Shown here: positions 3,791 through 57,822 of the stretch, in pieces
Layout: the number at the start of each line of letters is the position of its first letter
Position numbering within the stretch: the stretch's first letter is position 1
Virus record (IMG/VR): IMGVR_UViG_3300002039_000001
Coordinates: 1-64,000 of that record
From: a virus
Length of the DNA: 64,000 nucleotides
Strand: one strand, 5' to 3'
The notes under the pieces: generated by a model
Database searches by the model: none
Seen by the model: the letters and a program-made list of their open reading frames with translations, nothing else
Told to the model about the DNA's origin: nothing
Position numbers and translations under genes: made by a program

Positions 3791-3805
3791 ACAAGGAGAT
3801 CCCAG

Positions 3806-4216: not shown

Positions 4217-4230
4217 TCGGAGATTGAACA

Positions 4231-9280: not shown

Positions 9281-9505
9281 TTCTGATCCGAGGATGCCTC
9301 GAACCGCAAGGAGAGAGAGGATCTACGGTCTCCGCGACTAACCGAGAGCACCCTACGACAAGGCCACGGTCGGCCTCATACTGACCAACGTAGGACCCCG
9401 GGTCAGCACGTTCCGGCAATATCACAGGCGAAGGAACGTGGCAGAAGAAACGAAAAAGAATACTGGTCTGATCGCCAACCTCCAAATAGCTGACGACGAC
9501 CTCCC

Positions 9506-28700: not shown

Positions 28701-30134
28701 GACGCAGCCGGTAACACGTGGCAACGCCAATCAACAGCGACCGTGATCAAACCCGAAGGGCAAACATCGGACCGTGACGTCGGGTTGACGTCCCAGTCGA
28801 ATGGTCTCGCAGGTGCCACGTTGCAAGCGGTACCGGCGTCGGTGATCGCAGCGAAGTACGACGAAGGTTTCGCCCATATGGTCGAATGGTCAGGGACCCT
28901 AGCGGTCCCGGCCGGGACACTCGTCGAGGAAAACATTTTTGAGGCGTCCGCATCTGATGGTCCGACGTTGTCGCTTCATACCCGCGAGTCCGCGGGCAAC
29001 AAGATGTGGATGAAAGTGTGGGACCCCGCGGGCGGCTCCATTTCGAAGTCGACGGAGAACGTTCCTTTCGGTCAACGTGTCCACGTCAGGATGCTCGTCG
29101 CCCGTCACGCCACCGACGCCGCTGTGGACATGGCGATCGCTTGGTCCGAGGACGGCGGCGCGACATGGACCAGAGATGCAGCGACATCAGGTATCGGATC
29201 AGATGGCGGAGCGAACTTCGCTACGTTCGAAATGAACCCGGTCAACGGCACAGGTGAAATCACGATCGGTAACGCAACCGGCCAAGGCCCCGGCGTTGCA
29301 GGGTCATCGATCACCGAATCGGTTCGCTGGTTCGACCTTACATCCGGGACGACTCTCGTCGACGCGATCCTCGGACGTGACGTACCAGACGTACCCGCCG
29401 CTCTCGGAGCCGGGAACTTCATATCCGGTGTCGGGAACGTATGGTTGCTCGGATCGCAAGCTGACCTGTTCATCCTTCCATCGGTCGTGTTCGGCGTCGA
29501 CGGCGAACTCGACGTGTGGGAACCAGTGACACCAGTGCGGGCGACAGGGTTGAAACCACGGTCGTCCGGTGACCGGTTGTCGTTCGTGGATCACAGCCCA
29601 CCGCAAGGCGTCGGGTTGGTGTACCGCATCCGGCCAGTACTCGAAACTGCACCGTTCGCTACGGCGTCGACGGTGTGGGCCGAAACCGGTGAAGTGACCG
29701 TTACGCCTCGATCGTGGTGGATCACAAACCAGGACGGTGTTCGGGCGGAACTCGATCGAGTACCGGAACATGACTTGGAACGACCAGCTAACGCGCAGGT
29801 AGCTGCGAACCTTGCCGGTGAAGATTTCCATGTGTCGACCAGTCGAGTGCGGAAACCGACGTTCACGATCTCAGTTGACACGCTCACCGAAGCAGCGAAA
29901 CTGCGGTTCATTGAGGTGGCGTCGAGCGATGGTGTGTTGACGCTGCAGAACGTTCACGGCGACTCGTGGTTCGTGCAACGCGTCGGCGGTATCACCACCA
30001 CCCAGATCAACGCTCACAAGTTGCTGACTGAGCCGTGGCCGATCCGTTACTCGCATCGGCACACCATCAACGTTGTGACTGTGCCACGTGCCGAAGAATT
30101 GGGCTACGGGGACCGAACGTATGCGGCGGGGTAG
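25791..30134 (+). CDS. large minor tail protein (distal tail region)
   Basis: 1447 aa. ATGA overlap with the tape measure gene. Contains an AGDKLVTIVTMHNN... module of the type seen in actinophage minor tail proteins. Confidence 0.7.
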   Translation: MTNRTIDDKFLGAEAGDGSDVNRYAIESANDVVEATHESWPESGQVVATEPGARIHLFTYPDSTEGRAPTAEIPAVPPSDPIPANIEGPLTLSGTFNVGQTITDADTAIDRTADQFIVLDQVAVPASPSGVLWEQGNGTDGAYCGFVGGELVIRNGTGGDARFDGELLADQTGTLYLHLNPSAGSMSAWWLKDGDIQAIALGIASSGTPGDWAGTSGGSVGQVAGSANIEGGSAVPPNVRDSKTVMRVGGGGSTVADMPNHQAGDKLVTIVTMHNNGQSGAATAQLPGASRRLNFRGKNSVWAPAMFIWEQVATSDDEQITVTCQGPTKDWQRSITVMAIENAGQVSANLGSAQGAGPSTIGFDAADAGSALAIHVHSSASPENLNGVPGDTVASQNDPEYRGHQVGYTTSLGAAVVGVEQDPHTSATISVAGDVVNEGLAAFNGTINEARFYKNTPQPGNMLAEGVFGDPGTPIIPAAAATTYATGSPSTPWPNADLGRVLESVRPRLVQSRTGAGLWAARAFTVDDSGRTLYAPTIHRFTDVETDSGFVDRLGAAVASFSDGTDVNTAIGNGWPVGLLLEAVSVDETSLFGEARLDVASIRFSWVHPPTATIIYPAASSLAATVTPSVGWTLLDDDQQSAYRVRIWSDYDSDNPNSNVVYDSGRIVSRSARSHQVTRPLLPDSGYYVGVQSEGLQVNGRAAVANWVTHQFSTGEESAAPTTVAAPVAADNGDGSVTITGVDSHADQIGTYALIERASKAELDAARVASVEAAPKLVAESFDARAPGWMTTNSVNVPAAVQYYEWEWFGRLNWLVEDTRTLFEHGDEENVRAGISLWGHPENFDFNQPPPNPTPTLLGTPQAAGDLVVDALYAGEIGYRARLDAPLQTMTLSMSVDGGNTWVIAQTWLTGVVDPQVAAVNAPMYLNYRPGDPDQAINGHVRRFTFNVDGTMYADVDIDRDATADAASFTDAAGNTWQRQSTATVIKPEGQTSDRDVGLTSQSNGLAGATLQAVPASVIAAKYDEGFAHMVEWSGTLAVPAGTLVEENIFEASASDGPTLSLHTRESAGNKMWMKVWDPAGGSISKSTENVPFGQRVHVRMLVARHATDAAVDMAIAWSEDGGATWTRDAATSGIGSDGGANFATFEMNPVNGTGEITIGNATGQGPGVAGSSITESVRWFDLTSGTTLVDAILGRDVPDVPAALGAGNFISGVGNVWLLGSQADLFILPSVVFGVDGELDVWEPVTPVRATGLKPRSSGDRLSFVDHSPPQGVGLVYRIRPVLETAPFATASTVWAETGEVTVTPRSWWITNQDGVRAELDRVPEHDLERPANAQVAANLAGEDFHVSTSRVRKPTFTISVDTLTEAAKLRFIEVASSDGVLTLQNVHGDSWFVQRVGGITTTQINAHKLLTEPWPIRYSHRHTINVVTVPRAEELGYGDRTYAAG

Positions 30135-32989: not shown

Positions 32990-33772
32990 ATGGCTATCCT
33001 GTACCAGCACGGCATCCCCACAGCGGGGAAGCACATCAATATCAGAGACCTTCACCCCGAAGCTCGAGAACGCCAACTTGTGTTGTTCAAGTTGTGCGCC
33101 GCGGCGGGGTTGCGGATGTGGAACTACTCGGCGGTGCGAACCTATGACCATCAGAAACGGTTGTACGTCGCTTACCTGAATCGTGGGCGGCGGCATCCTG
33201 TGGTGGCGAACCCTGACCGTGTGAACTCGCGTGGTCGCCGTGGTTCTGCGCACATGCAGCAAAAGGCGAAAGGGTACCGTCACGGCAACCTGTCCAATCA
33301 GGTTGGCTATGGGTACGCGTCGGATATTGGGTTCACCGACCGGCGCCGTCCGAGTGTTGAAGTACAGAAACAATTCCATGCACTGGTCAAGAAAGCTGAC
33401 CTGTATCCGTCGGTGTCGACTGAGTGGTGGCACTTGGTCCCGACACCTAACGCCGACCTTCGAGTGTTCGGCGCGTTGGGTTGGAACGGTCAAGCCGTTG
33501 CTGACATACAGGAAGACTTGAACCGTGTGCTAGGTGCCGATCTGACCGTCGACGGGTGGTGGGGAAATCAGACGTCAGTGACCGTCGATGAGCTGCAACG
33601 TCGAGGTCAGGTCGTGCCTACTGGGTATTGGACAGAGCGGGAAAATGAAGTGGTCCGAACACTCCAAGCGAAGACGGCGAGCAACGTCTCGAAGTCTGCA
33701 GGTGTGGATCGGGCGACGAAGCAACGGATGCGGGAGATTGTTCGTCTCGCCCGTGAGCAGATCAACGATTAG
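32990..33772 (+). CDS. endolysin: M15-type peptidase domain plus PG_binding_1-like domain
   Basis: GSAHMQ...GYASDIGF...EWWHL resembles the zinc peptidase M15 (VanY / L-Ala-D-Glu peptidase) pattern. C-terminal GWNGQAVADIQEDLNRVLGADLTVDGWWGNQT resembles a peptidoglycan-binding repeat. Confidence 0.7.
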   Translation: MAILYQHGIPTAGKHINIRDLHPEARERQLVLFKLCAAAGLRMWNYSAVRTYDHQKRLYVAYLNRGRRHPVVANPDRVNSRGRRGSAHMQQKAKGYRHGNLSNQVGYGYASDIGFTDRRRPSVEVQKQFHALVKKADLYPSVSTEWWHLVPTPNADLRVFGALGWNGQAVADIQEDLNRVLGADLTVDGWWGNQTSVTVDELQRRGQVVPTGYWTERENEVVRTLQAKTASNVSKSAGVDRATKQRMREIVRLAREQIND

Positions 33773-37011: not shown

Positions 37012-37346
37012 GATTCAGGGTGGCTATCTTCGTGGTTTGCGGGGTCCTTGTGATCGTGGTCGCCGCTGTGTCGGCGTGGGTGTCTACGCTGCTCGTCCCG
37101 TCCGGGTTGCCTAGGGTCGCCGGGTTGGGGTTGGCGTTCATGTGTGGTGTGTGGTCGTACAACGTGATCACGAAACCGTTGTGGCGTTGGTTGTCGACCC
37201 GCTTGTTTTTCCGTGGCTATGAGAATCCGCATGTTCACATGTGGCAGTTGCATCACATCAATCATCAGGCCGGTTTGACTGTTCTTCGTTGTTGGTCTTG
37301 CGGTGAACGGTCCACTCATCTAACAGAAGGAGCATCACATGAGTAG
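37008..37346 (+). CDS. membrane protein
   Basis: 112 aa with hydrophobic helices (VAIFVVCGVLVIVVAAV, GLGLAFMCGVWSY). Confidence 0.55.
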   Translation: MRFRVAIFVVCGVLVIVVAAVSAWVSTLLVPSGLPRVAGLGLAFMCGVWSYNVITKPLWRWLSTRLFFRGYENPHVHMWQLHHINHQAGLTVLRCWSCGERSTHLTEGASHE

Positions 37347-37746
37347 CGCGTATCGGAAGGCGTTGGAGGTTCAGAAGGAGAAGGACCGCGCGAACATCGA
37401 AGCACGGAACAAGGCGGACCGGGCGAACAGCACGATCCGTGGCATCATCCGCATGAACGCGATCAACGCGATCCATGACAGGATGAGCACGTACGACATG
37501 CAAGACAGGTTCAGTGATGACCCGGAGTGGGCCCACATCGATGTGTCGCAGTTTGAGCGCCACGTCATCCCACCAAGGAGCGACCGCCCCAATGACGGGT
37601 CACCACAACCGGCGAGCAAACGCGACGAGATTGAGATCATGGAGATCATCCCCGGCGCCTACCTCGTTGTTGACCGTAAGAAGGTGTTGGACGAATCGAA
37701 ACGACAACTCGACGAATCGCTCAAGGAACAGCACACCGATGGGTAA
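37339..37746 (+). CDS. hypothetical protein
   Basis: 135-aa charged ORF. Confidence 0.6.
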   Translation: MSSAYRKALEVQKEKDRANIEARNKADRANSTIRGIIRMNAINAIHDRMSTYDMQDRFSDDPEWAHIDVSQFERHVIPPRSDRPNDGSPQPASKRDEIEIMEIIPGAYLVVDRKKVLDESKRQLDESLKEQHTDG

Positions 37747-37924
37747 GACCAAACATCTGTCGATTCGGGTGACGTACGGACAACTGAAACTGTTGGTCGG
37801 TTTGCTCGGCGACGAAGTTTGCACACCGAGACCCACAACATCAGTGGGCAGGATGGAAAGAGAGAAGCTGGAAGCGCTTCTGACCGAGTGCGACGAGCTA
37901 CTGTCGGTGTTGACACCGAATTAG
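37739..37924 (+). CDS. hypothetical small protein
   Basis: ATG 37739 overlaps the previous gene by 8 nt. 61 aa. Last gene of the operon. Confidence 0.45.
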   Translation: MGKTKHLSIRVTYGQLKLLVGLLGDEVCTPRPTTSVGRMEREKLEALLTECDELLSVLTPN

Positions 37925-37993
37925 TCCTGGTGGGTTCGGTCGGCTCATATTAGCCCCGTCCCCCGCGGTTATCCGACTGACCCACCGCCTTTC

Positions 37994-38031
37994 GAGGGAC
38001 GGCCCAGAAGTTGAGCTCCGGGCCGTCCCTC
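37994..38031 (+). terminator. 12-bp GC-rich hairpin after the early operon
   Basis: GAGGGACGGCCC (37994-38005) pairs with GGGCCGTCCCTC (38020-38031). No T-tract. Confidence 0.5.
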
Positions 38032-38054
38032 TCGCGTCCAACCCAAAAATGTAG

Positions 38055-38086
38055 GCACCCGCCGCGGAACTGTTCCGGGCGGGTGC
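38055..38086 (+). terminator. second strong hairpin (15 bp with one bulge)
   Basis: GCACCCGCC-g-CGGAAC-t-GTTCCG-GGCGGGTGC, read directly. Confidence 0.5.
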
Positions 38087-38531
38087 TACTGTTCGAGCCG
38101 TGCAGAACGAACGTAGTCAGTATACCACCGACCGCTAAGCGGGTGGTGCCGGGGAAGCCCCGATGACAGCAGTCTCCCCCTCCGAGGTCGAGGGGACACA
38201 CTCACCACAAATGTGGGACCCCGAAAGGGGCAATCATTCCCAGTGGTCGGAGCAGCTCACCAACTCAGCACAACGTGCGAGGAACACCGGGAGCCGACCA
38301 CTTTCGCAGACATACCCAATGCGAACCAAAGCGCTGACCAGAGCGATATCTGACGGAGTGTGGCGGACACGGTAGCCACCCCGTGACGTTGGTCCGACCC
38401 AGCAAGAGAGACGGAACACCCATAACACAACACCCCTCCCCCAAAGGTGGGGGCAGGACCGCGCACAAAACCACACACAGACACAACAACGAACTATGAT
38501 CCTGTGACGTGACATCATCACCGGTAAACGC

Positions 38532-39850: not shown

Positions 39851-40225
39851 ATGGACACAACAGAAACCCCAGGCGACACCGTCCCGAACGACTCGGTCGG
39901 GAAGGTACAGGTACCGGTACGGGCGCCGTCGTCGCTGGTCGATGACATGAACCGGTTACGCCTACAGATCCTCGACGAAATCGAAGAGGCTCAAGCGGTT
40001 CTAAGACGGTGCCATGTTCAGCGTCTCGACATGTTGGAACGTCATGAGAAGGAACTCGCCGTCAACCACGAGCTAGACGATCAACTTCTTCGTCGTCGTG
40101 ATGAACTGGTCGCACGCGCACGGGACGAAGCGAACATCGACGCAGCACAAATCGCTGCGAAACTGCAAGTCACATCGACAGAAGTGGGCGCCTACGTCCG
40201 CGCTCACAACAAACGAAACGAGTAG
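39851..40225 (+). CDS. hypothetical coiled-coil protein
   Basis: 124-aa ORF with RBS aaggagaaacgaa. Confidence 0.55.
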   Translation: MDTTETPGDTVPNDSVGKVQVPVRAPSSLVDDMNRLRLQILDEIEEAQAVLRRCHVQRLDMLERHEKELAVNHELDDQLLRRRDELVARARDEANIDAAQIAAKLQVTSTEVGAYVRAHNKRNE

Positions 40226-40227
40226 CA

Positions 40228-43200
40228 ATGTCAGCCCTTCAAGCACTCAAAGCAGGACGAGCCACACCACCGCCACAACTTGGAACGAACCGGCTCCGAG
40301 CTCGTGTGTACGACAACATCCGCAACGAAACGTTTGCGGAAGCGTTGTTGACCGGCGCGAACGTGACGACACCATGGAACTTCCGCAACTGCCGCGGTCT
40401 CCGGTTCCCGCTCTTGACCTTGAGGGACCTCGCCACGTCGAGCGGACCAACGAACAATTTCCGTAATCCGCTGGTCCGCTTCGACGACTGCGAAGACATC
40501 CTGATCGAAGACCTGATCGTGATCAACGTCAACCGCATGGGCGACGGTCAACACCGCCAAGACGTCATCTTCCTGAACAACGTCCCCGGGTTCCGCATCC
40601 GCCGAGCTTGGGTTGTCGACCTGCATTCGCCGCACATCAAACCCGGCAAACGAGTCGACGAAGGACACCGCCTTGTCTACGGACAAGGCAACCTCGAAGG
40701 TTTCGAAATGACCGATGGGACGTACCGGAACTGTGGTCGTAACCTCGTGCAACTCGCACGGTCCACCGGGTCAGGTCTCATCGCACGCAACGCCACGTTC
40801 GGGCGTGGCCCACGCGACTCCTCATATGAGGACATGATCAACACATACGGGCACCAAGCCACCGCCAACGCCCCGCTGATCCAGCAACACAACTTCTTTC
40901 AATACGGCGGACCGTCACTATCGGGCACCGGGACGATCGTCGGTGACGGCGGCAACAACCGTCCGACGCGACACGTTCACGCAATCGAAAACATCTATCG
41001 CAGCACCGGAGCGGTCGGGTTGAACATGGGCGGAGGCGAACACAACAAAGCCCTCGGCAACATCATGTTCAACGACATCGATGTCAACGACCCCGAATCC
41101 GTTGGTGTCGTCTGCAACGACTACCGGTACGCAGGCACAGCACGCGACATCGAAGTGCGCGGCAACCGTTCATGGTGGCGCAACAACCTCCCATATAACG
41201 GTCGGGTACGCGGCGGGGAAGTGAACCACGCATACATCAACCGCAACCGCATCGACGGTTACACCATCGAAGACAACCATTGGGGCGACGCCTCCCTGCT
41301 TGACATCGATCTGAATTGGACCGGACCAGCAGGATTCACTCAACCGCCACCGGTACCAGACACGCCGATCATCATTCAGCCACCCACCGAACCAGTACCA
41401 GACAATCTGCGCATCATTGAGCTTGAGACGCAAGGACGTTCAGGCGAGGAACGGTTCACGCTCACCCTCGGCGAAGCAGAATTTGCCGATGTTCAACCCG
41501 GACGCTTGACATTCGAAACGAACAGCATCGACCGCGACCCAGACATCAGCATCATGTTCACGAACGACGCACCAGGACGAGACCTCGGATTCGTTTCATT
41601 ATCCATCGACGGACGTCAAGTCGCCGACCGGAACACACCGGGATACTTCTCCGATGGCACATGGCCACACGGCGGTGAACGCACCGCGTCCGAAGATATC
41701 GAACCGTTGCACCGCGGATGGTTGCACTACAACGACGGGAACCTGTTCTTCCGTGACCTCGTCGCTGCGCACCTCGCACAGTTCCCCGAACCACTGGAAT
41801 CACCACCCGAACCAGCACCGGAGCCGATGCCGGAACCGAAACCCGAGCCGGAAGATCCGTTGCCGCCGATCGTCACGCCACCCGTCACTAACCCACCTCC
41901 GGTTGTGGACATCACACCGATCGACATCGACGAAGCACCACAACAGCCTGACATCCCGATGATTTTCGGGCTACCAAAAACGCAAGTCCGCGCGATCGTC
42001 GCCGCGTTCCTGATCCTTGTCCTATCGGCACTCATCGCAGCGGTCGCGATAGCAGCCCTCGCCGTCGACCAATACCTGAACACCACCGACGCCGGAGCCA
42101 CACCAACCACCACGATCCCGACCCAAGGACCGTCCACGATCCCCGCCACAACCGACACCGTCGCACCAACAACCGAAGCGCCGACATCGACCACAACCGT
42201 CGTACCCGACGCAGGAGACCGCATGTCATGGGGAGGACAGTTGAACTCGGCGACCGACTGGCCCATCCGAAACACCGACATTGATTTCCGACTGGACCAC
42301 GCATCCACTCCCGCGGAAGACATCAACGTCGACGACATGCTGGAAGCATCGAACCAACGCATCCTCATCGGAGCGTCAACACCGGTGAAGAGCTTGGGGC
42401 AGTTCCGAACGAAATGCTCGTTCTCACATTTGGCGTACGACGACCCGATCGTGTTCCCCGGTCAACCCGGCGCCGCTCACCTCCATGTGTTCTTCGGTAA
42501 CACCATGACCAACGCTCACTCCACATCCCAGACCATCCACGACACCGGGTCGTCAACGTGCAACGGATATGAAGGGAACCGCACCGGATACTGGGCACCC
42601 GCAGCGATCGACACCAACGGCGCAGTACGAATCCCCGACTTCCTCACCGTCTACTACAAGTCGCACAGCAACCGGGCAGGTAACGTACTCCGACTCCCCG
42701 ACGACCTCGCGTTCGTGTCACCCACCGGAACGACCCTCGGCAACAACCCACTACTACGCTGGTACTGCTCAGACCACGGAGCCGACGCCGCCCGAAACCA
42801 AAACCAATACAACACCTCCGAAACGATCCCGACATGTGAGGACCGGCACTACCTCATCGCCCACATCGGGTTCGGGAACTGCATCCGAGACGCCGCCACC
42901 ATCGACGGAACCAACATCAACTCGAGCCCACTGGTCGCCTACCCACTCGGCGGTTTCTTCTGGGGCAACTGCCCCAACGGACACGTCTACGCCACCGCCA
43001 TCGAATACGAAGTCGAATGGGCACCCGGCCAACACCAAGGATCAGCCGACTGGATTCTGAGCTCGGACGTGAACCACGCCGAAGGCGGGCAATGGCCCAA
43101 CGGGTCCACCCTCCACGGTGATTGGATGAACGGTTGGAACCCTGACCTGTTCGACCAGATCCACGACACATGCGTCGATCAGCTCGCCGACTGCCGATGG

Positions 43201-43368
43201 GATCACGTCGCCGACAACCAACGTTTGATCCGTGTCGAGCACTTCGGTAACCGTGCCCCAGGCGCGTACACCGGCCCGAACGTGATCCCCGGTGAACAAG
43301 TGTTAGCCGGGTTGTGCCCGGGCCAAGAGTTCACCGGTCAACACTCAGTGTCAGCATGCACTAGCTAG
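40228..43368 (+). CDS. single-pass membrane protein: N-terminal beta-helix-like domain, Pro-rich linker, TM helix, Thr/Pro linker, C-terminal DUF1996-like domain
   Basis: 1046 aa. PbH1-like repeats (IEDLIVINVN, GLIARNATFG, HAIENIYRSTGAVGLNMGGG, IMFNDIDVND, RDIEVRGN). PEPAPEPMPEPKPEPEDP. TM AIVAAFLILVLSALIAAVAIAALAV. ATPTTTIPTQGPSTIPATTDT. AYDDPIVFPGQPGAAHLHVFFGN...STC...GYWAP matches the DUF1996 signature. Confidence 0.75.
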   Translation: MSALQALKAGRATPPPQLGTNRLRARVYDNIRNETFAEALLTGANVTTPWNFRNCRGLRFPLLTLRDLATSSGPTNNFRNPLVRFDDCEDILIEDLIVINVNRMGDGQHRQDVIFLNNVPGFRIRRAWVVDLHSPHIKPGKRVDEGHRLVYGQGNLEGFEMTDGTYRNCGRNLVQLARSTGSGLIARNATFGRGPRDSSYEDMINTYGHQATANAPLIQQHNFFQYGGPSLSGTGTIVGDGGNNRPTRHVHAIENIYRSTGAVGLNMGGGEHNKALGNIMFNDIDVNDPESVGVVCNDYRYAGTARDIEVRGNRSWWRNNLPYNGRVRGGEVNHAYINRNRIDGYTIEDNHWGDASLLDIDLNWTGPAGFTQPPPVPDTPIIIQPPTEPVPDNLRIIELETQGRSGEERFTLTLGEAEFADVQPGRLTFETNSIDRDPDISIMFTNDAPGRDLGFVSLSIDGRQVADRNTPGYFSDGTWPHGGERTASEDIEPLHRGWLHYNDGNLFFRDLVAAHLAQFPEPLESPPEPAPEPMPEPKPEPEDPLPPIVTPPVTNPPPVVDITPIDIDEAPQQPDIPMIFGLPKTQVRAIVAAFLILVLSALIAAVAIAALAVDQYLNTTDAGATPTTTIPTQGPSTIPATTDTVAPTTEAPTSTTTVVPDAGDRMSWGGQLNSATDWPIRNTDIDFRLDHASTPAEDINVDDMLEASNQRILIGASTPVKSLGQFRTKCSFSHLAYDDPIVFPGQPGAAHLHVFFGNTMTNAHSTSQTIHDTGSSTCNGYEGNRTGYWAPAAIDTNGAVRIPDFLTVYYKSHSNRAGNVLRLPDDLAFVSPTGTTLGNNPLLRWYCSDHGADAARNQNQYNTSETIPTCEDRHYLIAHIGFGNCIRDAATIDGTNINSSPLVAYPLGGFFWGNCPNGHVYATAIEYEVEWAPGQHQGSADWILSSDVNHAEGGQWPNGSTLHGDWMNGWNPDLFDQIHDTCVDQLADCRWDHVADNQRLIRVEHFGNRAPGAYTGPNVIPGEQVLAGLCPGQEFTGQHSVSACTS

Positions 43369-43436
43369 ATCCGACATTGGCACATCGACGTGTGCTACAT
43401 TTGGTGTTGCCTCCAAGCAGAAAGAAACAACACCAC

Positions 43437-44180
43437 ATGCAACGATTCCTTTCATCGTCACTAGTCCTGCTGCTGACGTTCGCCGCGTTCTACATGACGC
43501 ACATGGCGACACCACCAGACCCCGGGCTGGTGTCATCACCGACGACCACATCGTCGACGTCGACGATCCAAATGTATGACCCGTCCGCTCAACCTACAGC
43601 GCCGCTCACGTTGGAAGACTTGCCGTACGACCCGAACACCGGGTCCTATCTTGTCGATGCGGAGGCGTTGGAAACGTTGGCACGCAACCGTGCGTTGAAC
43701 GCCAACATCGAAGCCGACCTTTTACCCGCCGACCTACTCCCGGGCATCGCGGTGGACGCCCCCAACGTCGGACGCATCATCGAAGAACACACAGCGTCTG
43801 AGATAGTGGCACCCCCGATCGACGCTGACCCGTACACACTCCAAGCGTACGTTCAGACGATCGCAGCGTCCGAGTACGGGTGGCACGGCCAACAATGGGA
43901 CGACCTCGTGTGGCTCCTGAACGAAGAGTCAACATGGCGGGCCGACGTACGCAACCCCGGAAGCACCGCAGCCGGGTTGTTTCAGTTCCTTAGTAGCACC
44001 GCACGCATATATGGCATCGACCACCCCAGCACTACGGGCAGGTTCGCGACGGTGTCCGAACAGACACGAGCCGGATTGTTGTACATCTCGGATAGGTACG
44101 GCGACCCGACCAGTGCCAAAGCCCGATGGTTGTGGAACTGCCGCAACAACCCGCAACTACGCTTCCCCTGCTTCTACTGA
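43437..44180 (+). CDS. secreted or anchored lytic transglycosylase (SLT-like) protein
   Basis: ATG 43437. Signal-like MQRFLSSSLVLLLTFAAFYM, Ser/Thr linker, LLNEESTWRADVRNPGSTAAGLFQFLSSTARIYG (ES...AGL.Q pattern). Confidence 0.6.
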   Translation: MQRFLSSSLVLLLTFAAFYMTHMATPPDPGLVSSPTTTSSTSTIQMYDPSAQPTAPLTLEDLPYDPNTGSYLVDAEALETLARNRALNANIEADLLPADLLPGIAVDAPNVGRIIEEHTASEIVAPPIDADPYTLQAYVQTIAASEYGWHGQQWDDLVWLLNEESTWRADVRNPGSTAAGLFQFLSSTARIYGIDHPSTTGRFATVSEQTRAGLLYISDRYGDPTSAKARWLWNCRNNPQLRFPCFY

Positions 44181-44697: not shown

Positions 44698-46008
44698 ATG
44701 ACCGTCGAATACCTCACCGGTGATTCACTCGAAACGATGCGACTGTTACCCGACAACAGTGTGGACCTGTCGGTGTGCTCACCGCCGTTCCTCGCGCTAC
44801 GTAACTACAACGACCTTGACGGCCAATGGGGATCAGAACCCGACCCATCGAGCTTTCTCGACAACCTCCTCGAGCTAGCCACCGAAACCCGACGAGTACT
44901 CGCACCGCATGGTTCGTTGGCATGGGAAATAGGCGACACCTACTCCGGGTCCGGTGGATCAGGCGGCGACTACAACAAGGACGGACTCCGCGAAGGCCAG
45001 AACAAGTTCACCGGTTCAGCGGCACGCAACGGCAAAGGCGCCGACGTCACAAGCAAAGACAAATGGGCCTCATCCGACAAACGACCGGGTTGGCCGCTCG
45101 CCAAATCCTTAACCATGGTCCCCACCCTGTTCGCCGCATCACTCGCCTACGGACACAACCTCCTAAACCCCGACCACACATTCGAACCGTGGCGTGTACG
45201 CAACATGATCGTATGGGCACGCAACAACCCACCAGTCGGCAGGCTCGGCGACAAGTTCCGACCAGCCGTCTCCTACATCACAGTGGCATGCCCATCGAAA
45301 GACCGTTGGTTCGACCTCGACGCCGTACGTGTCGACCCGAAGCACGGTTTCACCAGCACACGATCTATCCCATTCACTCAACCAGCGCGCAACATAGACG
45401 GACAGCCAGCACGAAAGGTCAACGGTCCAAACGAAGATGGCGAACGTATTGAGTGCAACCCTGCTGGGGCGCCGCCTAAAGACTTCTGGACCGACGAACA
45501 CCCCCCCGAACACATGCACTGGCTCGTCAACGGGCAACCATCCAAACTCGCCCATTACGCGATGTGGCCCCCGAAACTCGCTGAACGGTTGGTGTTGTCG
45601 ATGTGCCCGCTAGAGGTGTGCAACGAATGCGGTGAACCACGACGACGGGTGACAGAGACTGAACGAACGAACAACGGCAACCCGACGGACTTGGTGATAG
45701 CCCACCCAAATCAAGCATCAAGCGGTGGCGGGGAATACATCACCCAACGTGGTACATGGGGAACCAACGTCGAGACGGTCGGTTGGTCTGATTGTGACCA
45801 CGACAATTACCGTCCCGGTGTTGTGTGTGATCCGTTCGCGGGGACGGGAACAACTGTTCTGGTTGCCGACGCTCACGGTCGTGATGGCATTGCCATAGAT
45901 CTGGACCCGGCCAACCGCGATCTGTTGGAGATGCGCCGGGACGAAGTTATGCGATCGCTTTTCGGCACAAAGCCTCAGCTTCCCGGTCAAACGGAACTTT
46001 TCGCATGA
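44698..46008 (+). CDS. DNA N6-adenine / N4-cytosine methyltransferase (N6_N4_Mtase family)
   Basis: SVDLSVCSPPF (motif IV, D/SPPY/F type) near the N-terminus and VVCDPFAGTGTT (motif I) near the C-terminus. Confidence 0.85.
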   Translation: MTVEYLTGDSLETMRLLPDNSVDLSVCSPPFLALRNYNDLDGQWGSEPDPSSFLDNLLELATETRRVLAPHGSLAWEIGDTYSGSGGSGGDYNKDGLREGQNKFTGSAARNGKGADVTSKDKWASSDKRPGWPLAKSLTMVPTLFAASLAYGHNLLNPDHTFEPWRVRNMIVWARNNPPVGRLGDKFRPAVSYITVACPSKDRWFDLDAVRVDPKHGFTSTRSIPFTQPARNIDGQPARKVNGPNEDGERIECNPAGAPPKDFWTDEHPPEHMHWLVNGQPSKLAHYAMWPPKLAERLVLSMCPLEVCNECGEPRRRVTETERTNNGNPTDLVIAHPNQASSGGGEYITQRGTWGTNVETVGWSDCDHDNYRPGVVCDPFAGTGTTVLVADAHGRDGIAIDLDPANRDLLEMRRDEVMRSLFGTKPQLPGQTELFA

Positions 46009-46500: not shown

Positions 46501-46910
46501 CAACCACAGAGCAGCATTCACCGGCCCGGTTCTCACCCGAACCGATCCTCGACTACTTCGACCAGGACCCCAACGGACCCGAACGCAAACTCGACATCGA
46601 CCGCATCGCACAAGCCTGTGGCATTCACCGACGCCGCGTCGTCCGATGGATCAGCGACGGCACAACCATGAACGACCGATGCGCCGACGAGATCGCCACC
46701 CGCCTCGGGTTCCACCCCGACATCCTCTGGCCTGATTACACGTCGACGTTGGGCGCTGACTGCCAAGCCCCCGACTGCGAACGACACCAAGACGTGCTAC
46801 GCCACGGCCTTTGCCTCGCTCATTACAACCGGTGGCGCCGACTCGGGAAACCAGATAAGGACACACTCGCACCGCTCCGACCCAGCAGAAAGGCGTCGGT
46901 CGCGGCGTGA
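46497..46910 (+). CDS. HTH plus Cys/His-motif DNA-binding protein
   Basis: ATG 46497 (ATGA overlap). RIAQACGIHRRRVVRWISDG (HTH-like). CQAPDCERHQDVLRHGLCLAHYNRWRRLGKPD is the same motif as the HNH N-termini. Confidence 0.55.
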   Translation: MTTTEQHSPARFSPEPILDYFDQDPNGPERKLDIDRIAQACGIHRRRVVRWISDGTTMNDRCADEIATRLGFHPDILWPDYTSTLGADCQAPDCERHQDVLRHGLCLAHYNRWRRLGKPDKDTLAPLRPSRKASVAA

Positions 46911-47950
46911 CCTACCGCATCGCCGAACTCTGCGCGGGCTATGGAGGTCTCGGCATGGGTCTCGAGCTAGCCGGTATCAACATCGAACACGTCTGGTACT
47001 CCGAACTGCACGAGCTCACAGATAAGAAGGGTAAGACGAAACCGAACCCGGCTGAATCGTTGATGAACGAGTACTACGGGATACCGAACCTCGGTGATCT
47101 CACCGAAATACACAACCCCCCGAAGGTTGACATTGTTGCAGCGGGGTTCCCGTGTCAGCCAGTCAGCGCGGCCGGTTTAGGGAAAGGGCATGAAGATGAA
47201 CGATGGATCATTGACGATGTTTGCCGAGTTGCGAGCGAATCCGGGGCGATGTTGCTCGTGCTCGAAAACGTGCGAGGACTGCTTGCCCCTGGCAACCGGG
47301 ACGCTATGGCCCGAGTGTGTGCAGCGTTGGCCCGTTTCGGGTTCGATGCGGAATGGGCAACTCTTCGAGCGTCCGATGTTGGAGCTTGCCACGAACGAGA
47401 CCGATGGTTTGGCGTTGCTTACAACGCCGACGGCTTGGCTGGGTCGACGTCCGGGGAATTCGGACCTGTCGATAACAGATTCGTTCGATCGGGGAACCGG
47501 ACACGAGCTTACGCGGGACATAGCCAAACTCCGATAAGGCTCTTACCGACGCCGACGGCGTCCAACCCGAACGAAGGTGAAGACCCCGACACGTTCGATG
47601 CACGGCAGAAGGCGAGGGTAGAAGCTGGTTCGAGGCCGTCACCGAAACCATTGGGAATGGTTGTAAAGACGCTCCCGACTGTAGAGATAGAGCATCCATG
47701 GGGAGAGTACTCGGACGCCATCGCCCGGCACGAAGAGATCATGGGTTCGCCCCCACCGTCACCGGCCGTAGACAACAAACTGTCGCCGTTGTTTGTGGAG
47801 TGGATGCAGATGATACCTAAGGGTCGCGTTACCGATCACGTTGAGAAGCGCAACGATGCTTTGTTCGTGTTGGGTAATGGTGTTGTGCCGCCTCAGGTGG
47901 CGGCGGCTGTTGGCGGTTTATTGGATCGGGTGGAGGGCCATGATGTCTGA
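46907..47950 (+). CDS. DNA (cytosine-5)-methyltransferase
   Basis: ELCAGYGGLGMG (motif I), GFPCQPVS (motif IV PCQ), LVLENVRGL (motif VI ENV). Confidence 0.85.
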   Translation: MTYRIAELCAGYGGLGMGLELAGINIEHVWYSELHELTDKKGKTKPNPAESLMNEYYGIPNLGDLTEIHNPPKVDIVAAGFPCQPVSAAGLGKGHEDERWIIDDVCRVASESGAMLLVLENVRGLLAPGNRDAMARVCAALARFGFDAEWATLRASDVGACHERDRWFGVAYNADGLAGSTSGEFGPVDNRFVRSGNRTRAYAGHSQTPIRLLPTPTASNPNEGEDPDTFDARQKARVEAGSRPSPKPLGMVVKTLPTVEIEHPWGEYSDAIARHEEIMGSPPPSPAVDNKLSPLFVEWMQMIPKGRVTDHVEKRNDALFVLGNGVVPPQVAAAVGGLLDRVEGHDV

Positions 47951-48392
47951 GTTGTCGATCGAGGATCGGTTGCAGGAAGTGCGAGCCAAGCAACGCCGGA
48001 ACAGGCCCCCGGTTCCTGTCACACCGGAGGTTCGGGCGGAGTCGCACAAGCAGATCGGTATGGCGTTAGCTGAGGTCGCTGCCGGTACTGAATGGGTGGA
48101 CCAAGTACGCCAAGCCATCCACCAATATTTGTTGGGGAACCGGTTCATGTTCATTGATGACCTTCGGGAGTGGGATCAGTTCCCCCCGATCCCTGGTGCC
48201 ACCGAAGAGGAGCAACGGTCAGCGAAGAAAGCGATCGGAACGGCGATGCACGCCGCCGCGAAGTCGTACGGTTGGTGTCGGAAGGCCCGGCCGACTGGTG
48301 ATTGGCCTGACGACGCGTTCGTGTCCCGCCCGTCCGTCCATTCCAACGGTTCGCCGAAGCCGCTATGGGAGTCTTTGCTTTACCGGCCATAG
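47940..48392 (+). CDS. hypothetical protein
   Basis: ATG 47940 overlaps the methyltransferase gene end. 150 aa. Confidence 0.55.
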   Translation: MMSELSIEDRLQEVRAKQRRNRPPVPVTPEVRAESHKQIGMALAEVAAGTEWVDQVRQAIHQYLLGNRFMFIDDLREWDQFPPIPGATEEEQRSAKKAIGTAMHAAAKSYGWCRKARPTGDWPDDAFVSRPSVHSNGSPKPLWESLLYRP

Positions 48393-50427: not shown

Positions 50428-52677
50428 ATGGCCTTTCTACGTGACAAGGTCATCGATCTTCAAACCTCGAACCTGAACAACATCACAACGGATATCACCA
50501 ACCTGGATTATGAGGCTGGTGACACGTTGGTGTTGTGCGTATCGAAGGACACCACAACTGGCGGTGATTTGGGCACGCCTGCGGGGTGGACGAAGCTCGG
50601 CGGTGACGTAACTAACTCGACAGCGGTCCGGGGAGCGCTGTTCTACCGGGAGAACGTGCCTGCCAATGTGCCGAACCCGGCAGTGACGTCGACTGATACG
50701 GATACGTGGGCGTCGTGGTGCGCTTCGATCGGCGGCGCACCCGCGTCGAATGTGATTGATGCGTCGACGACGTGGTCGGAAAACTTCACCAGCCACGAGG
50801 CATCGATCCCTTCGCTGACCACCCAGTCAGCGAACACGCTCGTGCTTTGGGCGATCGGCACTGACGGTGCCGGCCAGATCTACAACCCGAAGGCGTCACG
50901 TCTCATCAACTACGACGACGGCGTTGGTTGCACCGCCGGCGGGTTCTGGGCCACCAAGCTCAACGCCGGGGCGACCGGGGCGTTCACGATGCTGTCCGGT
51001 GGTGTCGAGCAGACGGTCGGTTGGGTCGTGTCGATCAAGGACGGATCTGGGGGCGCTGACGTGCCCGGCGTGGTCGAGGGCGGTGTCAACGAATCAAACC
51101 TTGTGCTCGCACTGCAGGGCATCGAAACGAACACGTACGCACCGACCGGTATCGGTTCGGACATTGCGATCAGTTCGCTGATCGGCACGTTCCAAGGTCG
51201 CAACATCTTGGACATGAAAACGCTGGTCGATCAGACCGACGCCGCGTCTGTTCCGTACGCTCGCGCCCCGAGGATGGAAGCTGACCGGCAGAACGACACC
51301 GGGTTCGCGTTGTCATGGAATTTGGATGTCACGAACGGCACCGCCGCGTTCGACGTGTCCGACCCCGACCATCACCTTTTCTTCATGATCCATCACCGTG
51401 ATGCGAAGCTGCAGGCGATCGGCGGTCTGGCGAACGACTTCGGCACCGCGATCTTGTTGCATGATTCTGGCGGCGACTGGGCGGCGTACGGTGTTGATGG
51501 CCGCGACTCGAACCGGAAACTCGACACAGCGAACGCAGGGCCGGTCATCATCGACCCTACCGATACCGTCCGACTCGCTGAGTCAGGCACCCTCAACGAC
51601 AACGCTCTGCGGCACATGACGGTGGCGGCGTTCGCTGCCCTGTCGAACAACTACTACACACATTTGGGCGGCGTGTACATCTGCCACCCGTGGACACTCG
51701 TCGGTGGGTCGTCGAACATCCCAGCGAACCTCGACGACATCATCGACTACGGCCGACGCCTCAATGTCCGACCGTTGTTCCGTGAGGGGTTCGCTTACAC
51801 GGCGTATGCGATCATCAAACTCGGGAACGGCACGGACGGTCTCGACTGCAACCTCGACGGTGACCAGATCACGTTCGCTGCCAGAGACAACGCTTGCCAC
51901 ATCGCTGACGGGCACTTCGGATTGATCGTCGACACCGCCGCAGGTAACAGCATCTCCGCGGTTGGTTCGTCCTGGGCGTCAGAAACACCGTTCCGGTTCG
52001 ACCTGTCATCAGCGGCCGGTACCGTCAACTTCCAACGAGCGAATGTCATTGGCGCTACCCCTGTGACGTTGTCGGCTGTTGTCGACATGACAGACGCGAC
52101 GTTCACAGGTTGCGGAGAGATCGACGCTAACGGCGCCGAACTAACGGGAGCGACGATAGATAGCAGCACCGCTACACCAGCGATAACGATCAGTTCTCAG
52201 GCCGAGCTCGACAACATGGTCGGCGTGAAATTCACGAACAACAACGTAGCGATAGTCATCGACGCAGCCGGGTCTCTAACGTTGTCCGCTGACAATGTCA
52301 CGTTCACCGGTAACACTGTCGACATCGTCTACACCGGTACGGGCACGTTGACGTGGCAGAACCTCAACGGATCTGACGCTGCGTCCTCATCAGCTCCGGG
52401 TGGCGGCACCGTGATAATCGAATCACCAGCCGTCTTGACGTTCACAGGTATGGACGCAGGGTCAACGGTTCGTGTCTGGTCCGGTGTCGGCGGCACACTC
52501 CTAGCTGACCTCAACGAGGTAGCAGGCCAAGCCGCGTACGCCCACAACGGGTCGGGTACTGTGTTCGTGCAATACACCGACATCGATACGAAGATCTTCA
52601 ACCTGACGATCGTTCTCGCACCGGCCGACTCGACGATCCCGCTCGCCACCCAGTTCAACCGCCAATACAAGACATAG
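50428..52677 (+). CDS. large fibre / tailspike-like protein ending NRQYKT
   Basis: 749 aa. N-terminal AGDTLVLCVSKD...PAGWTKLGG module as in minor tail proteins. Later beta-helix-like repeats (VKFTNNNVAIVIDAAGSLTLSADNVTFTGNTVDIVYTG). Confidence 0.6.
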   Translation: MAFLRDKVIDLQTSNLNNITTDITNLDYEAGDTLVLCVSKDTTTGGDLGTPAGWTKLGGDVTNSTAVRGALFYRENVPANVPNPAVTSTDTDTWASWCASIGGAPASNVIDASTTWSENFTSHEASIPSLTTQSANTLVLWAIGTDGAGQIYNPKASRLINYDDGVGCTAGGFWATKLNAGATGAFTMLSGGVEQTVGWVVSIKDGSGGADVPGVVEGGVNESNLVLALQGIETNTYAPTGIGSDIAISSLIGTFQGRNILDMKTLVDQTDAASVPYARAPRMEADRQNDTGFALSWNLDVTNGTAAFDVSDPDHHLFFMIHHRDAKLQAIGGLANDFGTAILLHDSGGDWAAYGVDGRDSNRKLDTANAGPVIIDPTDTVRLAESGTLNDNALRHMTVAAFAALSNNYYTHLGGVYICHPWTLVGGSSNIPANLDDIIDYGRRLNVRPLFREGFAYTAYAIIKLGNGTDGLDCNLDGDQITFAARDNACHIADGHFGLIVDTAAGNSISAVGSSWASETPFRFDLSSAAGTVNFQRANVIGATPVTLSAVVDMTDATFTGCGEIDANGAELTGATIDSSTATPAITISSQAELDNMVGVKFTNNNVAIVIDAAGSLTLSADNVTFTGNTVDIVYTGTGTLTWQNLNGSDAASSSAPGGGTVIIESPAVLTFTGMDAGSTVRVWSGVGGTLLADLNEVAGQAAYAHNGSGTVFVQYTDIDTKIFNLTIVLAPADSTIPLATQFNRQYKT

Positions 52678-56415: not shown

Positions 56416-57822
56416 GTGTCGCTAAGAGCAGGTCAAGAAGCATTACAAGGCCTCACCACCCGACAACGCGAAGCGTACCTACAAGCCGCCCTAGCCGAAC
56501 TCGTCAACCGGTCAGCAGCCAAAGACCGCACACCATTCGAAGTCGCACTACAGGACTACCAAAAAGCACCCGAAGGCGACTGGCGCGTCCGACTGTTCAG
56601 AGCAGGCCGCGGCGCAGGCAAAACCCACTCCGGCGCCGCGTGGTCCGCCGAACAAGCCGAGAACGTTCACCCCGGCAAAGTCGGAATGGTCGTCGGTCCC
56701 AATTACACGACCGTTAAGCAGGTCATGATCGAAGGCCAAGGATCAGGCCTCCTCGACATATTGGGTGACCGAGTCAAGCGGTACGTCAAATCACCGGACC
56801 TCGAAATTCATTTGAAGTCCGGGTCGGTGATCCTCGCCCGATCCGCTGAACGACCCGAATCGATTCGTGGAGCGAACCTGTCATGGGCGTGGGCTGACGA
56901 GCTGCAGGACTGGCGATACCGCGAAGCATGGCACGACTCGCTCATGCCGGCGTTGCGTATCGGCAACCTCCCCCAAGTCATGGTGACTTGCACACCGAGG
57001 TCAGTTGGCCTGATTCGGGACCTCCGGGAAATGGTCGAATCCGGCAACCCGAGAATCGTTGAACAAACAGCAACGATGTTCGACAACCTGTTCCTATCGG
57101 AGCACGCCAAACAAGACTTGTTGGATCAGTACGGCGGAACAGAGATCGGTAGGCGTGAGCTCTACGGCGAGTACGTCGACTCCGTCATCGGTGCGGTGTG
57201 GAAGGAAGCATGGATCAAAACGGATTTGCCGTGGCAAACGATCGCGTCGCTCCATGGAGGACTGGCCGACTGCGTTGTCGGTGTTGACCCGACCGGTCAG
57301 GCTGAAGGGTTGGGCGATGAGTGCGGAATGATCGTCGCTGGTCGTACGCAAACGGGGCGTGGTGTGGTCATCGCTGATGAAACGATCTCCGGGTCACCGG
57401 GCGAGTGGATCGATCATCTGGCGGATGTGTTCTATTCGGAGTACACACCGGACCGTTGGTCGCCGCGCACCGTCGTGATTGAGGGTGACGGGTCGCACGC
57501 CAATTTCGCTAAGGAGATCTTGAACAGGTCGAATCACAACATCCCGTTTGATATTGTGAATACGGGGTCGGTGTCGAAGCTGGATCGTGCCCGCCCTATT
57601 TCGACGATGTGGGAACAGGGCCGTGTTGATCATTTGGATGAGTTCGATTTGTTGGTGGATCAGATGTTGACGTGGGTTCCTGGTGAGGTGAAGGGTTATT
57701 CGCCGGATCGTGTGGATGCGTTGGTGTGGGCGATGTCGTATCTGTTTCCGTCTCGGGCGAACAAGGCGACGTCGGTTGGTCGTCAGCATCAGCGGGGACG
57801 TACGCGCGACGGACGACGATAG
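56416..57822 (+). CDS. terL: terminase large subunit
   Basis: 468 aa. FRAGRGAGKTHSG (Walker A), WAWADELQDW (Walker B region), C-terminal nuclease-like VGVDPTGQAEGLGDECGMIVAG ... RVDALVWA. Confidence 0.85.
   Translation: MSLRAGQEALQGLTTRQREAYLQAALAELVNRSAAKDRTPFEVALQDYQKAPEGDWRVRLFRAGRGAGKTHSGAAWSAEQAENVHPGKVGMVVGPNYTTVKQVMIEGQGSGLLDILGDRVKRYVKSPDLEIHLKSGSVILARSAERPESIRGANLSWAWADELQDWRYREAWHDSLMPALRIGNLPQVMVTCTPRSVGLIRDLREMVESGNPRIVEQTATMFDNLFLSEHAKQDLLDQYGGTEIGRRELYGEYVDSVIGAVWKEAWIKTDLPWQTIASLHGGLADCVVGVDPTGQAEGLGDECGMIVAGRTQTGRGVVIADETISGSPGEWIDHLADVFYSEYTPDRWSPRTVVIEGDGSHANFAKEILNRSNHNIPFDIVNTGSVSKLDRARPISTMWEQGRVDHLDEFDLLVDQMLTWVPGEVKGYSPDRVDALVWAMSYLFPSRANKATSVGRQHQRGRTRDGRR

Follow-up and report, generated by a model that had tools for sequence, protein, structure and literature searches.

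A phage membrane protein best read as the fusion of a phage-type beta-helix module with a host-type DUF1996 exoprotein

The window analysed here, i.e., the whole 64,000-nucleotide stretch that covers positions 1 to 64,000 of the IMG/VR record IMGVR_UViG_3300002039_000001, derives from an uncultured tailed phage and contains, on the plus strand at 40228-43368, a 1046-aa open reading frame (ORF) whose predicted product raises an unusual question: why would a phage join a beta-helix module of the kind found in tailspikes to a DUF1996 domain of the kind exported by bacteria, with a single membrane helix between the two? The known glycan enzymes of phages are tailspikes of the virion or soluble depolymerases, and their known exported enzymes are endolysins; a tailspike-type module tied to an exported, host-type domain across the membrane represents a new architecture. 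The gene is real, has the extent given in the initial annotation of the window, and encodes a bitopic membrane protein (hereafter, the fusion protein) that is best read, based on the sequence comparisons described below, as the in-frame fusion of two formerly separate accessory genes, one phage-type and one host-type. Our data either show or strongly support the domain identities, a single membrane helix, a predicted N-in/C-out orientation, the descent of the two halves from different sources and the singular status of the fusion, and the protein may offer a concrete case for how phages edit the envelope of infected actinobacteria.

The reading frame itself leaves little room for a different gene model. 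GC content at third codon positions (GC3) is high in frame 0 throughout the fusion gene and the region of the junction is free of stop codons. The stop codon of a 124-aa upstream gene lies 2 nt before the ATG of the fusion gene and, because an in-frame TGA at 40102-40104 is followed by no start codon before that ATG, the frame cannot be extended upstream to include a hidden signal peptide. Comparisons of the whole gene were of limited help: when the fusion gene and 20 kb of the window were compared with GenBank phages by megablast, no match was obtained, the Pfam scan (E ≤ 1) returned nothing besides DUF1996, PHROGs contained no family for the fusion protein, and no paralogue was found in the window. 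A full-length, word-indexed search returned the fusion protein alone, with the low-complexity linkers saturating the candidate list; therefore, the two halves were searched separately.

The C-terminal half is a DUF1996 domain, as had been proposed: Pfam PF09362 matched over its full profile (1-237/237) with an E-value of 2.7e-23 and 83.7 bits vs. a cut-off of 27. The head signature (D739-D-P-I-V-F-P), the HLH motif and the tail signature (H963-G-D-W-M-N-G-W) are all present, the first and last corresponding to the DPIxxP and HxDxxxGW signatures defined previously (PMC4738358), and the fusion protein retains 30/30 invariant columns of a 121-sequence DUF1996 alignment, among them His, Asp, Trp and Cys positions. 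With aa 660-1046 as the query, 530 homologues were recovered, with homology to cellular proteins spanning aa ~676-1046; the best 12 of these showed 44-50% identity, were 390-613 aa long and originated from metagenome-assembled genomes (MAGs) of Acidimicrobiales and other Actinomycetota. Consistent with this, a scan of species-representative genomes found the closest relatives overwhelmingly in Acidimicrobiales/Acidimicrobiia, often with several paralogues per genome. The expansion of the family in Acidimicrobiales is seen also among the 80 loci that were kept (L077-L156), where several MAGs carried two to three paralogues. The genomic context of the cellular copies is heterogeneous overall, with a weak signal for carbohydrate-active enzymes (CAZymes): a few copies adjoin apiosidase-like or GH9 genes, and one homologue was found in an ordinary chromosomal context, next to leuCD and an apiosidase-like gene.

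Bacterial relatives of the domain are fused to CBM60, CBM_4_9, CBM_6, ricin-B, SLH or SH3_3 domains, and for the fungal proteins CBM1/CBM6/WSC fusions have been noted and a function in polysaccharide degradation suggested (PMC7679414), while knock-out in fungi leads to sensitivity towards cell-wall perturbants, among other stresses, and the proteins are vacuolar (PMC4738358; PMC9148135). Our literature search for DUF1996 recovered this fungal genetics and no phage or biochemical work; a link to Cd binding in an Enterobacter study was dismissed, since that paper merely cites the fungal work. The AlphaFold 2 (AF2) model of the domain had a predicted local distance difference test score (pLDDT) of 87.8 and a predicted template modelling score (pTM) of 0.90. 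Foldseek comparison of this model with PDB and BFVD found nothing significant (best E-values 0.25-0.26, TM-score ~0.1), and searches of the PDB by sequence and by profile, the profile search with DUF1996 included, matched neither half of the fusion protein. Jelly-roll and ConA-like proteins were the weak top matches of Foldseek and were not relied upon as structural neighbors.

The homology extends beyond the domain. From M578 onwards, the C-terminal 469 aa of the fusion protein reproduce the layout of the cellular proteins, that is, a short basic N-region, a transmembrane (TM) anchor, a linker, a 'TDWPIRNT...' extension and DUF1996. The TM helix of the fusion protein (aa 589-613) occupies the place that the N-terminal signal anchor has in the cellular homologues, and these carry an Ala/Pro/Thr linker where the fusion protein has its linker of aa 614-665. 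That the C-terminal ~469 aa represent a captured copy of an Acidimicrobiia-type exoprotein (46-50% identity to Acidimicrobiales proteins) is therefore strongly supported by the sequence comparisons. The phage DUF1996 branches off deeply and separately, with 44-49% identity to a clade that is 67-98% identical within itself, and the GC content of the C-terminal part (0.606) is close to that of the phage (0.589), the closest donors being at 0.63-0.67; hence, the capture was not recent, at least from the lineages sampled.

The N-terminal half has different relatives. Although the fusion protein gave no direct Pfam match to PF13229 (Beta_helix) at E ≤ 1, an exhaustive phmmer search recovered 112 remote relatives of aa ~50-360, and PF13229 was matched by 41 of the top 45 of these, NosD by 25, and GH28 or pectate-lyase-like models by a few. 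AF2 modelled the region as a stack of short strands (pLDDT ~85-98 over aa ~50-370), and Foldseek related this core, with a probability of 0.99-1.0, to 2pyg, 6qps, 9j4l, 2vbk and 7b8b, its matches including the AlgE4 C5-epimerase, a PL6 lyase, DFA-IIIase, IFTase, the tailspikes of Sf6, CBA120 and Det7, and polygalacturonases. The residues that are invariant in the family are kept as well (S-x-Y-E201-D202-M-I-N205, N222 and G239-D240-G). Collectively, relatives and model confirm the fold of aa ~50-365 as a right-handed beta-helix, of a putatively glycan-processing family, in agreement with the beta-helix without signal peptide that had been annotated in the first ~370 aa.

Most of the beta-helix relatives possess N-terminal signal peptides or anchors. 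A minority are signal-less and share with the fusion protein a similar start and a helix that begins ~50 residues in; the leader start M-x-x-L-x-x-L-K-A-G resembles the N-termini of four such phage relatives (P0136, P0138, P0143 and P0144), a likeness that we regard as suggestive only. Two of the latter (P0143 and P0144) are encoded on phage contigs where capsid, tube and tape-measure genes come first and Dit and a minor tail protein immediately precede them, and P0136 lies within a phage structural block; PHROGs had no family for the tail-type relatives. The word-indexed search with the N half found one relative, P0002 (485 aa, 37-40% identity), which is likewise absent from PHROGs. This nearest relative is encoded by a gene of its own, stops after a Pro/Thr-rich tail and lacks both TM helix and DUF1996; its phage-like contig has a further gene in common with the window and, like the fusion gene, the P0002 gene is located outside any tail module. 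Hence, the N module is phage-type and should fold in the cytoplasm, and in related phages it is either virion-associated or free. Beta-helix pattern scans of IMG/VR confirmed no further N-module relatives and none were found in metagenome contigs; the tail module of the window has no beta-helix paralogue. On the contig that carries P0002 (L001), the stop codon of the gene is directly followed, in another frame (frame 3, 5993-6331, overlapping the 3' end of the gene), by coding sequence for a Pro-rich stretch and then a TM-like segment (FGAVLVATALCLWGLVCAVSA). Through a frameshift, or as a small overlapping gene, this would place a membrane segment behind the P0002 module as well, echoing the layout of the fusion protein.

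The beta-helix is followed by a module for which the initial annotation had suggested a carbohydrate-binding character over ~130 aa, and this could be made more specific. Although aa ~395-515 did not reach the gathering score of CBM60 (PF16841; 14.7 bits vs. a cut-off of 28.2, E 0.044), hhalign against CBM60-bearing segments (matched by CBM60 at E 1e-10 to 1e-42) gave a probability of 97.5% and an E-value of 6.8e-12, and in 4/4 phmmer relatives of the region (P0147, P0167, P0187 and P0201) the matched segment coincides with a CBM60. AF2 modelled this region poorly and with low confidence. Hence, aa ~395-515 are CBM60-like at the level of profile homology, and their glycan binding is putative; Pfam describes CBM60 as a Ca-dependent module. 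CBM60 is paired with the beta-helix in the secreted relatives P0125, P0128 and P0134 and is also carried by the DUF1996 relatives P0022 and P0024. That is, relatives of both halves share CBM60, which suggests that the three modules come from one extracellular glycan toolkit, and this is the main reason to think that the two halves address related glycans. The following Pro/Glu-rich linker (aa 519-577) is the probable 3' tail of the ancestral N-module gene, which places the fusion junction near aa 570-580; the Pro/Thr-rich tail of P0002 follows its CBM60-like module in the same manner.

The annotated order of a Pro-rich linker, a single TM helix preceded by K/R and a Thr/Pro linker agrees with composition and hydropathy. 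Kyte-Doolittle analysis gave a mean hydropathy of up to 3.08 for aa 589-613, while no other segment exceeded 1.4, and the flanking charges are +2/-1 on the N side (K584, R588) and 0/-2 on the C side (D614, D621). The cysteines point in the same direction. Four columns that are 84-97% Cys in 32 secreted beta-helix relatives hold N, L, A and R in the fusion protein (0/4), and the phage-type beta-helix relatives lack these four Cys as well, whereas the conserved Cys columns of DUF1996 are all kept (10/10). The N half thus appears to be built for a reducing and the C half for an oxidising compartment, and the cysteine pattern may serve as a simple, sequence-only read-out of the membrane side for which each half is built. 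Taken together with the absence of a signal peptide and the layout of the cellular homologues, charges and cysteines allow a strong inference that the protein is oriented N-in/C-out, as had been predicted.

How unique is this combination? The fusion was seen once among ~15 billion proteins; no long protein with both domains was found among the homologues of either half and, apart from the fusion gene itself, the N module is not encoded near DUF1996 at any locus, be it viral or cellular. DUF1996 alone is a different matter, and to the question, raised in the initial annotation, of whether any phage carries it, the answer is that many do: DUF1996 genes were found on 69 IMG/VR contigs, representing 42 clusters at 80% identity, and, among GenBank phages, in the complete siphovirus MW202423 (UOF76731.1). 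Many of the viral DUF1996 contigs are genuine phages, since genes for endolysins, tail proteins, portal, terminase and DNA polymerase, all hallmarks of phages, are found on either side of DUF1996. These other phage proteins are 360-630 aa long with ordinary Sec or lipoprotein signals, and their immediate neighbors are heterogeneous (terminase, tail proteins, one endolysin, PhoH, helicases); therefore, DUF1996 behaves as movable accessory cargo rather than as part of a fixed module. One IMG/VR contig (L010) carries two DUF1996 genes (2888-4336 and 6858-8789), the second followed directly by a GH19/chitinase-like endolysin gene (8789-9337), and in another (L024) an endolysin gene lies beside the DUF1996 gene, upstream of it. 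A regular association of DUF1996 with muralytic genes in phages, as hinted by these two contigs and the window, was not borne out, an endolysin neighbor being present in 1/42 clusters. Accordingly, the novelty is the fusion and not the phage-borne DUF1996.

With respect to function, we infer a glycan-directed nature from the pairing with CBM60, the GH28 and pectate-lyase-like matches, the tail-module relatives, the CBM fusions of DUF1996 and the fungal work. The role that we tentatively favor, and to which we would grant somewhat less than an even chance, is that the protein strips or alters an envelope glycan on infected cells and on debris, serving exclusion and escape. The roles put forward in the initial annotation (receptor masking, exclusion, release) are likewise hypothetical. 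Under this hypothesis, the TM helix would act as an internal signal anchor during infection, and the disulfide-bonded DUF1996 domain would be exposed on the outer side, where a flexible linker extending into the wall would let it bind or cleave a wall-associated or extracellular glycan. The beta-helix/CBM60 module would be held at the inner face and, since its relatives all act outside the cell, would most likely meet its extracellular-type substrate only at lysis. The net effect of stripping or altering the envelope glycan would be less superinfection, less loss of progeny on debris and easier escape, to which the neighboring, membrane-anchored SLT transglycosylase (see below) could possibly contribute. 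Several observations weigh against this hypothesis. The fusion comes from one metagenomic contig only, with no sign from conservation that the fused state is selected. DUF1996 has no described activity or structural neighbor, which means that the term 'glycan enzyme' rests on domain fusions, and its heterogeneous neighbors, in phages and cells alike, point to no specific pathway. Further, tethering a beta-helix/CBM60 module to the inner face of the membrane would keep it idle through most of the infection and, as the module would still be membrane-bound after lysis, would represent an inefficient design; the host, too, is known by inference only.

Alternatively, the gene might be an auxiliary metabolic gene, i.e., an extra, membrane-anchored DUF1996 exoenzyme of host type that boosts the scavenging of extracellular polysaccharides by the infected cell, with the beta-helix/CBM60 part being a passenger or a second glycanase freed at lysis. 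The expansion of DUF1996 in Acidimicrobiales as a mostly stand-alone exoprotein family with several paralogues per genome, the CBMs and the occasional apiosidase-like or GH9 neighbors of the relatives, the host-like anchor and linker kept in the phage copy, and the mobility of DUF1996 as cargo in other phages, once beside PhoH, a classic neighbor of auxiliary metabolic genes, are all consistent with this scenario. However, the phage copy is a deep, separate branch (44-49% identity) and no near-copy of a host gene, the phage shows no sign of a transporter or catabolic partner, the pay-off of degrading polymers within a short infection window is uncertain, and the fusion is left unexplained; we thus consider this scenario unlikely, albeit worth keeping in view. 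It is also conceivable that the protein is pre-positioned in the membrane and, acting jointly with the SLT protein encoded next to it, breaks down a wall layer other than peptidoglycan at the time of lysis, with DUF1996 attacking on the outer side and the beta-helix following after breach of the membrane. The logic would be analogous to that of signal-anchored endolysins and of the LysB proteins of mycobacteriophages. An SLT gene with its own anchor and linker 9 nt downstream, the endolysin genes next to DUF1996 in the two phage contigs mentioned above (L010, immediately downstream; L024, upstream), and a signal-less beta-helix that would wait in the cytoplasm as canonical endolysins do, would all fit. 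Yet an endolysin adjoins DUF1996 in only one of the 42 clusters, the phage has an endolysin-like gene at the usual place after the tail genes, and the fusion gene is located among regulatory and DNA-modification genes; moreover, the TM helix differs from a signal-arrest-release (SAR) segment in its strong hydrophobicity (Kyte-Doolittle 3.08) and therefore would not be released from the membrane. Such a lysis role appears quite unlikely to us. Another scenario would have both faces of the membrane active at the same time, the cytoplasmic beta-helix/CBM module on cytoplasmic or lipid-linked precursors and DUF1996 on the mature polymer outside, which is close to what had been suggested originally. 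The well-supported topology, the invariant acidic residues kept in the N module and the lack there of the disulfide cysteines of secreted relatives, by which it should be able to fold in the cytoplasm, are in line with such a two-faced enzyme. Nonetheless, the relatives whose location can be interpreted all act outside the cell, as Sec-exported bacterial proteins (often with CBM60) or as signal-less phage proteins of tail or structural modules, the Ca-dependence of CBM60 fits extracellular conditions, and the absence of disulfides is equally expected for a phage protein that is made in the cytoplasm and used after lysis. A beta-helix working in the cytoplasm hence finds no backing in its family, and we regard the scenario as improbable. 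To the variant in which the fused state is functional and selected as a trans-membrane glycan-remodelling device, with both halves on one envelope polymer at two stages (the inner module would trim or intercept the nascent or lipid-linked polymer and DUF1996 would cleave the mature one), we assign a similarly small probability; if it were true, the phage receptor would be erased from infected cells and DUF1996 would represent a new carbohydrate-active enzyme family, with a fold without solved relative, that phages use repeatedly.

The remaining explanations give the fused state less meaning or move the protein to the virion. A sequencing or assembly error, or a very recent, neutral event in which the stop codon separating two neighboring genes was lost (one for beta-helix/CBM60, the other for TM-DUF1996 with its start at M578), would leave the halves functioning, if at all, as they did when separate. 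The fusion is a singleton, P0002 ends exactly where the fusion begins, and M578, the K/R residues and the TM helix reproduce the N-terminus of the cellular proteins exactly, all of which would be expected in such a case. On the other hand, the junction has no in-frame stop and a coding-like GC3 in frame 0, a single indel does not explain an in-frame fusion, and the GC content of the C-terminal part (see above) matches the phage and not the donors. The ORF is flanked by phage genes on both sides, which argues against a chimeric join of phage and host sequence, and no Shine-Dalgarno-like sequence was found before M578, a finding that also leaves an internal start there, giving a separate product, unsupported. 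Artefact or neutral accident thus has only a slim chance of being correct. Lastly, the protein could be a displaced tail protein whose leader docks on the tail, such that beta-helix, CBM60 and DUF1996 act from the virion. The structural-block or tail-module location of P0136, P0143 and P0144, their similar N-terminal start and colinear beta-helix, and the missing beta-helix paralogue in the window's own tail module are compatible with this. However, the strongly hydrophobic helix of 25 residues, which came along with a signal-anchored exoprotein, would take the protein into the membrane; 8 kb separate the last tail gene from the fusion gene, which is surrounded by WhiB and methylase genes, and the closest relative, P0002, is encoded outside a tail module too. 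Accordingly, we consider a virion location highly improbable.

Comparison with known systems delineates what is new. The signal-anchored DUF1996 exoproteins of Acidimicrobiales/Acidimicrobiia (P0003, P0007) have the same layout as the C-terminal 469 aa of the fusion protein, at 46-50% identity, but their anchor is at the N-terminus of a 390-610-aa protein, whereas in the fusion protein it is internal, after 577 aa of phage-type sequence. The secreted DUF1996 proteins of other phages (MW202423 and the 42 IMG/VR clusters) are likewise exported accessory cargo in genuine phage genomes but are ≤ 45% identical to the fusion protein, and none is fused to a beta-helix or to a large N-terminal module. 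The tail-module proteins P0143 (L075) and P0144 (L074) resemble the fusion protein in being signal-less, in their start, in the colinear helix and in lacking the secreted-type disulfide cysteines, but continue from the beta-helix into Ig-like He_PIG/Big_9 domains instead of a CBM60-like module, TM helix and DUF1996. Classical tailspike depolymerases (Sf6 2vbk, CBA120 TSP2 5w6p/6w4q, Det7 6f7k) have a right-handed beta-helix as well, and the signal-less beta-helix body is what one would expect of such virion enzymes, unlike the location outside the tail module and the presence of a TM segment. The secreted P0125, P0128 and P0134 belong to the same beta-helix family (29-33% identity, with shared E-D and G-D-G motifs); they have signal peptides, two conserved Cys pairs and CBM60 N-terminal to the helix, whereas the fusion protein has neither signal peptide nor these Cys pairs and carries its CBM60-like module C-terminal to the helix. 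The AlgE4 mannuronan C5-epimerase (2pyg) and the PL6 alginate lyase (6qps) are structural neighbors of the beta-helix, with a likeness by fold. SAR endolysins (P1 Lyz, phage 21 R21) and signal-peptide endolysins hold a Sec-exported enzyme domain outside by a hydrophobic segment. The SAR endolysins combine a peptidoglycan hydrolase with an N-terminal, weakly hydrophobic, releasable anchor, as opposed to the internal, strongly hydrophobic anchor and DUF1996 domain here, and neither Pfam nor PHROGs detected a muralytic domain in the fusion protein. The fungal proteins (Beauveria bassiana VLP1-3, Wsc1I) are of the same Pfam family, with the same DPIxxP and HxDxxxGW signatures, but are eukaryotic and localised to the vacuole or cell wall, unlike the fusion protein. 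As a large family and recurrent phage cargo (42 IMG/VR clusters), DUF1996 should be a good target for structure/function work and CAZyme discovery.

The genomic setting of the fusion gene is non-structural, as annotated, between WhiB and two DNA methylases and 8 kb past the last tail gene, a 1918-aa tape measure protein and the tail proteins occupying ~20-32.5 kb of the window (Table 1). The claim that it is also far from lysis genes did not hold, given the SLT gene 9 nt downstream and the endolysin-like gene 6.5 kb upstream. The tail, endolysin-like, Sak4-like, WhiB, fusion, SLT, methylase and terminase genes are all on the plus strand, and the two methyltransferases presumably have an anti-restriction role. 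The 267-aa SLT protein matched PHROG 15428 and transglycosylase/tape-measure segments and was borderline for Pfam SLT (21.1 bits vs. a cut-off of 21.3); in tblastn against phages, its only matches were transglycosylase motifs within the tape measure proteins of actinophages and free-standing SLT proteins from Streptomyces phages (e.g., Endor1/2). The fusion and SLT genes are thus two consecutive genes for membrane-anchored exo-domains, and they may form one envelope-directed unit.

Table 1. Coordinates of the fusion gene, its modules and selected other genes in the window.
Feature	Position	Strand	Remarks
Minor-head-protein-like gene	10949-11944		In the first half of the window, as are the tail genes
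Endolysin-like gene, VanY-type peptidase and PG_binding_1	32990-33772	+	Usual place after the tail genes, 6.5 kb upstream of the fusion gene
Sak4-like recombinase	35657	+	
WhiB	38532	+	
Whole fusion gene, 1046-aa bitopic fusion protein	40228..43368	+	ATG start; stop codon 43366-43368
N-terminal leader, aa 1-49	40228..40374	+	Not hydrophobic; AF2 pLDDT < 50 for residues 1-48
Right-handed parallel beta-helix, aa ~50-365	40375..41322	+	Pfam matches of relatives, AF2, Foldseek
CBM60-like carbohydrate-binding module (putative), aa ~395-515	41410..41772	+	F-x-N-D-x-P-G-R-D motif; hhalign
Pro/Glu-rich linker, aa 519-577	41782..41958	+	23 Pro in 59 aa (39% Pro)
Single transmembrane helix (AIVAAFLILVLSALIAAVAIAALAV), aa 589-613	41992..42066	+	Kyte-Doolittle; K584 and R588 before, D614 after
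Thr/Pro-rich extracytoplasmic linker (predicted), aa 614-665	42067..42222	+	17 Thr and 7 Pro in 52 aa
Extended DUF1996 domain, aa 666-1046	42223..43365	+	Pfam core aa 739-970 (42442-43137)
267-aa protein gene: N-terminal hydrophobic anchor, Thr/Ser/Pro linker, C-terminal SLT-type transglycosylase domain	43377..44180	+	Adjacent, 9 nt downstream of the fusion gene
N6/N4-type DNA methyltransferase	44698-46008	+	Downstream of the fusion gene
C5-type DNA methyltransferase	46907-47950	+	Downstream of the fusion gene
Large terminase	56416-57822	+	Near the window end

The host is probably a member of Actinomycetota, and of Acidimicrobiia in particular, since the phage carries WhiB, the SLT domain matches actinophage proteins only, and the DUF1996 domain matches Acidimicrobiales. 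No near relatives of the phage were found among GenBank phages, nor by a search of IMG/VR with the flanking genes. The large ORFs at 14072-17392 (1106 aa) and 25791-30134 (1447 aa) of the structural region had no PHROG match and that at 50428-52677 (749 aa) of the replication region had no Pfam match; these three underline the distance of the phage from those described. The position of the large terminase near the window end, with the minor-head-like and tail genes in the first half, makes it probable that the contig of 64,978 bp is a circularly permuted genome, complete or nearly so. ARAGORN called a tRNA-Thr (GGT) on the plus strand at 48265-48340; this call is uncertain because Rfam, which at gathering thresholds reported no RNA family anywhere in the window, found no tRNA and because the site overlaps listed ORFs. 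Promoter and terminator counts in the window were at the level expected by chance. Finally, the region just before WhiB (37115-38531) is free of long ORFs and includes a strong hairpin at 37994-38031 (15-nt arms, 93% complementary, 8-nt loop), which coincides with a turn in the cumulative GC skew at ~38 kb. The hairpin may be a terminator or operon boundary, or else an origin; as a terminator or boundary, it would make the fusion gene the fourth gene of a WhiB-led unit.

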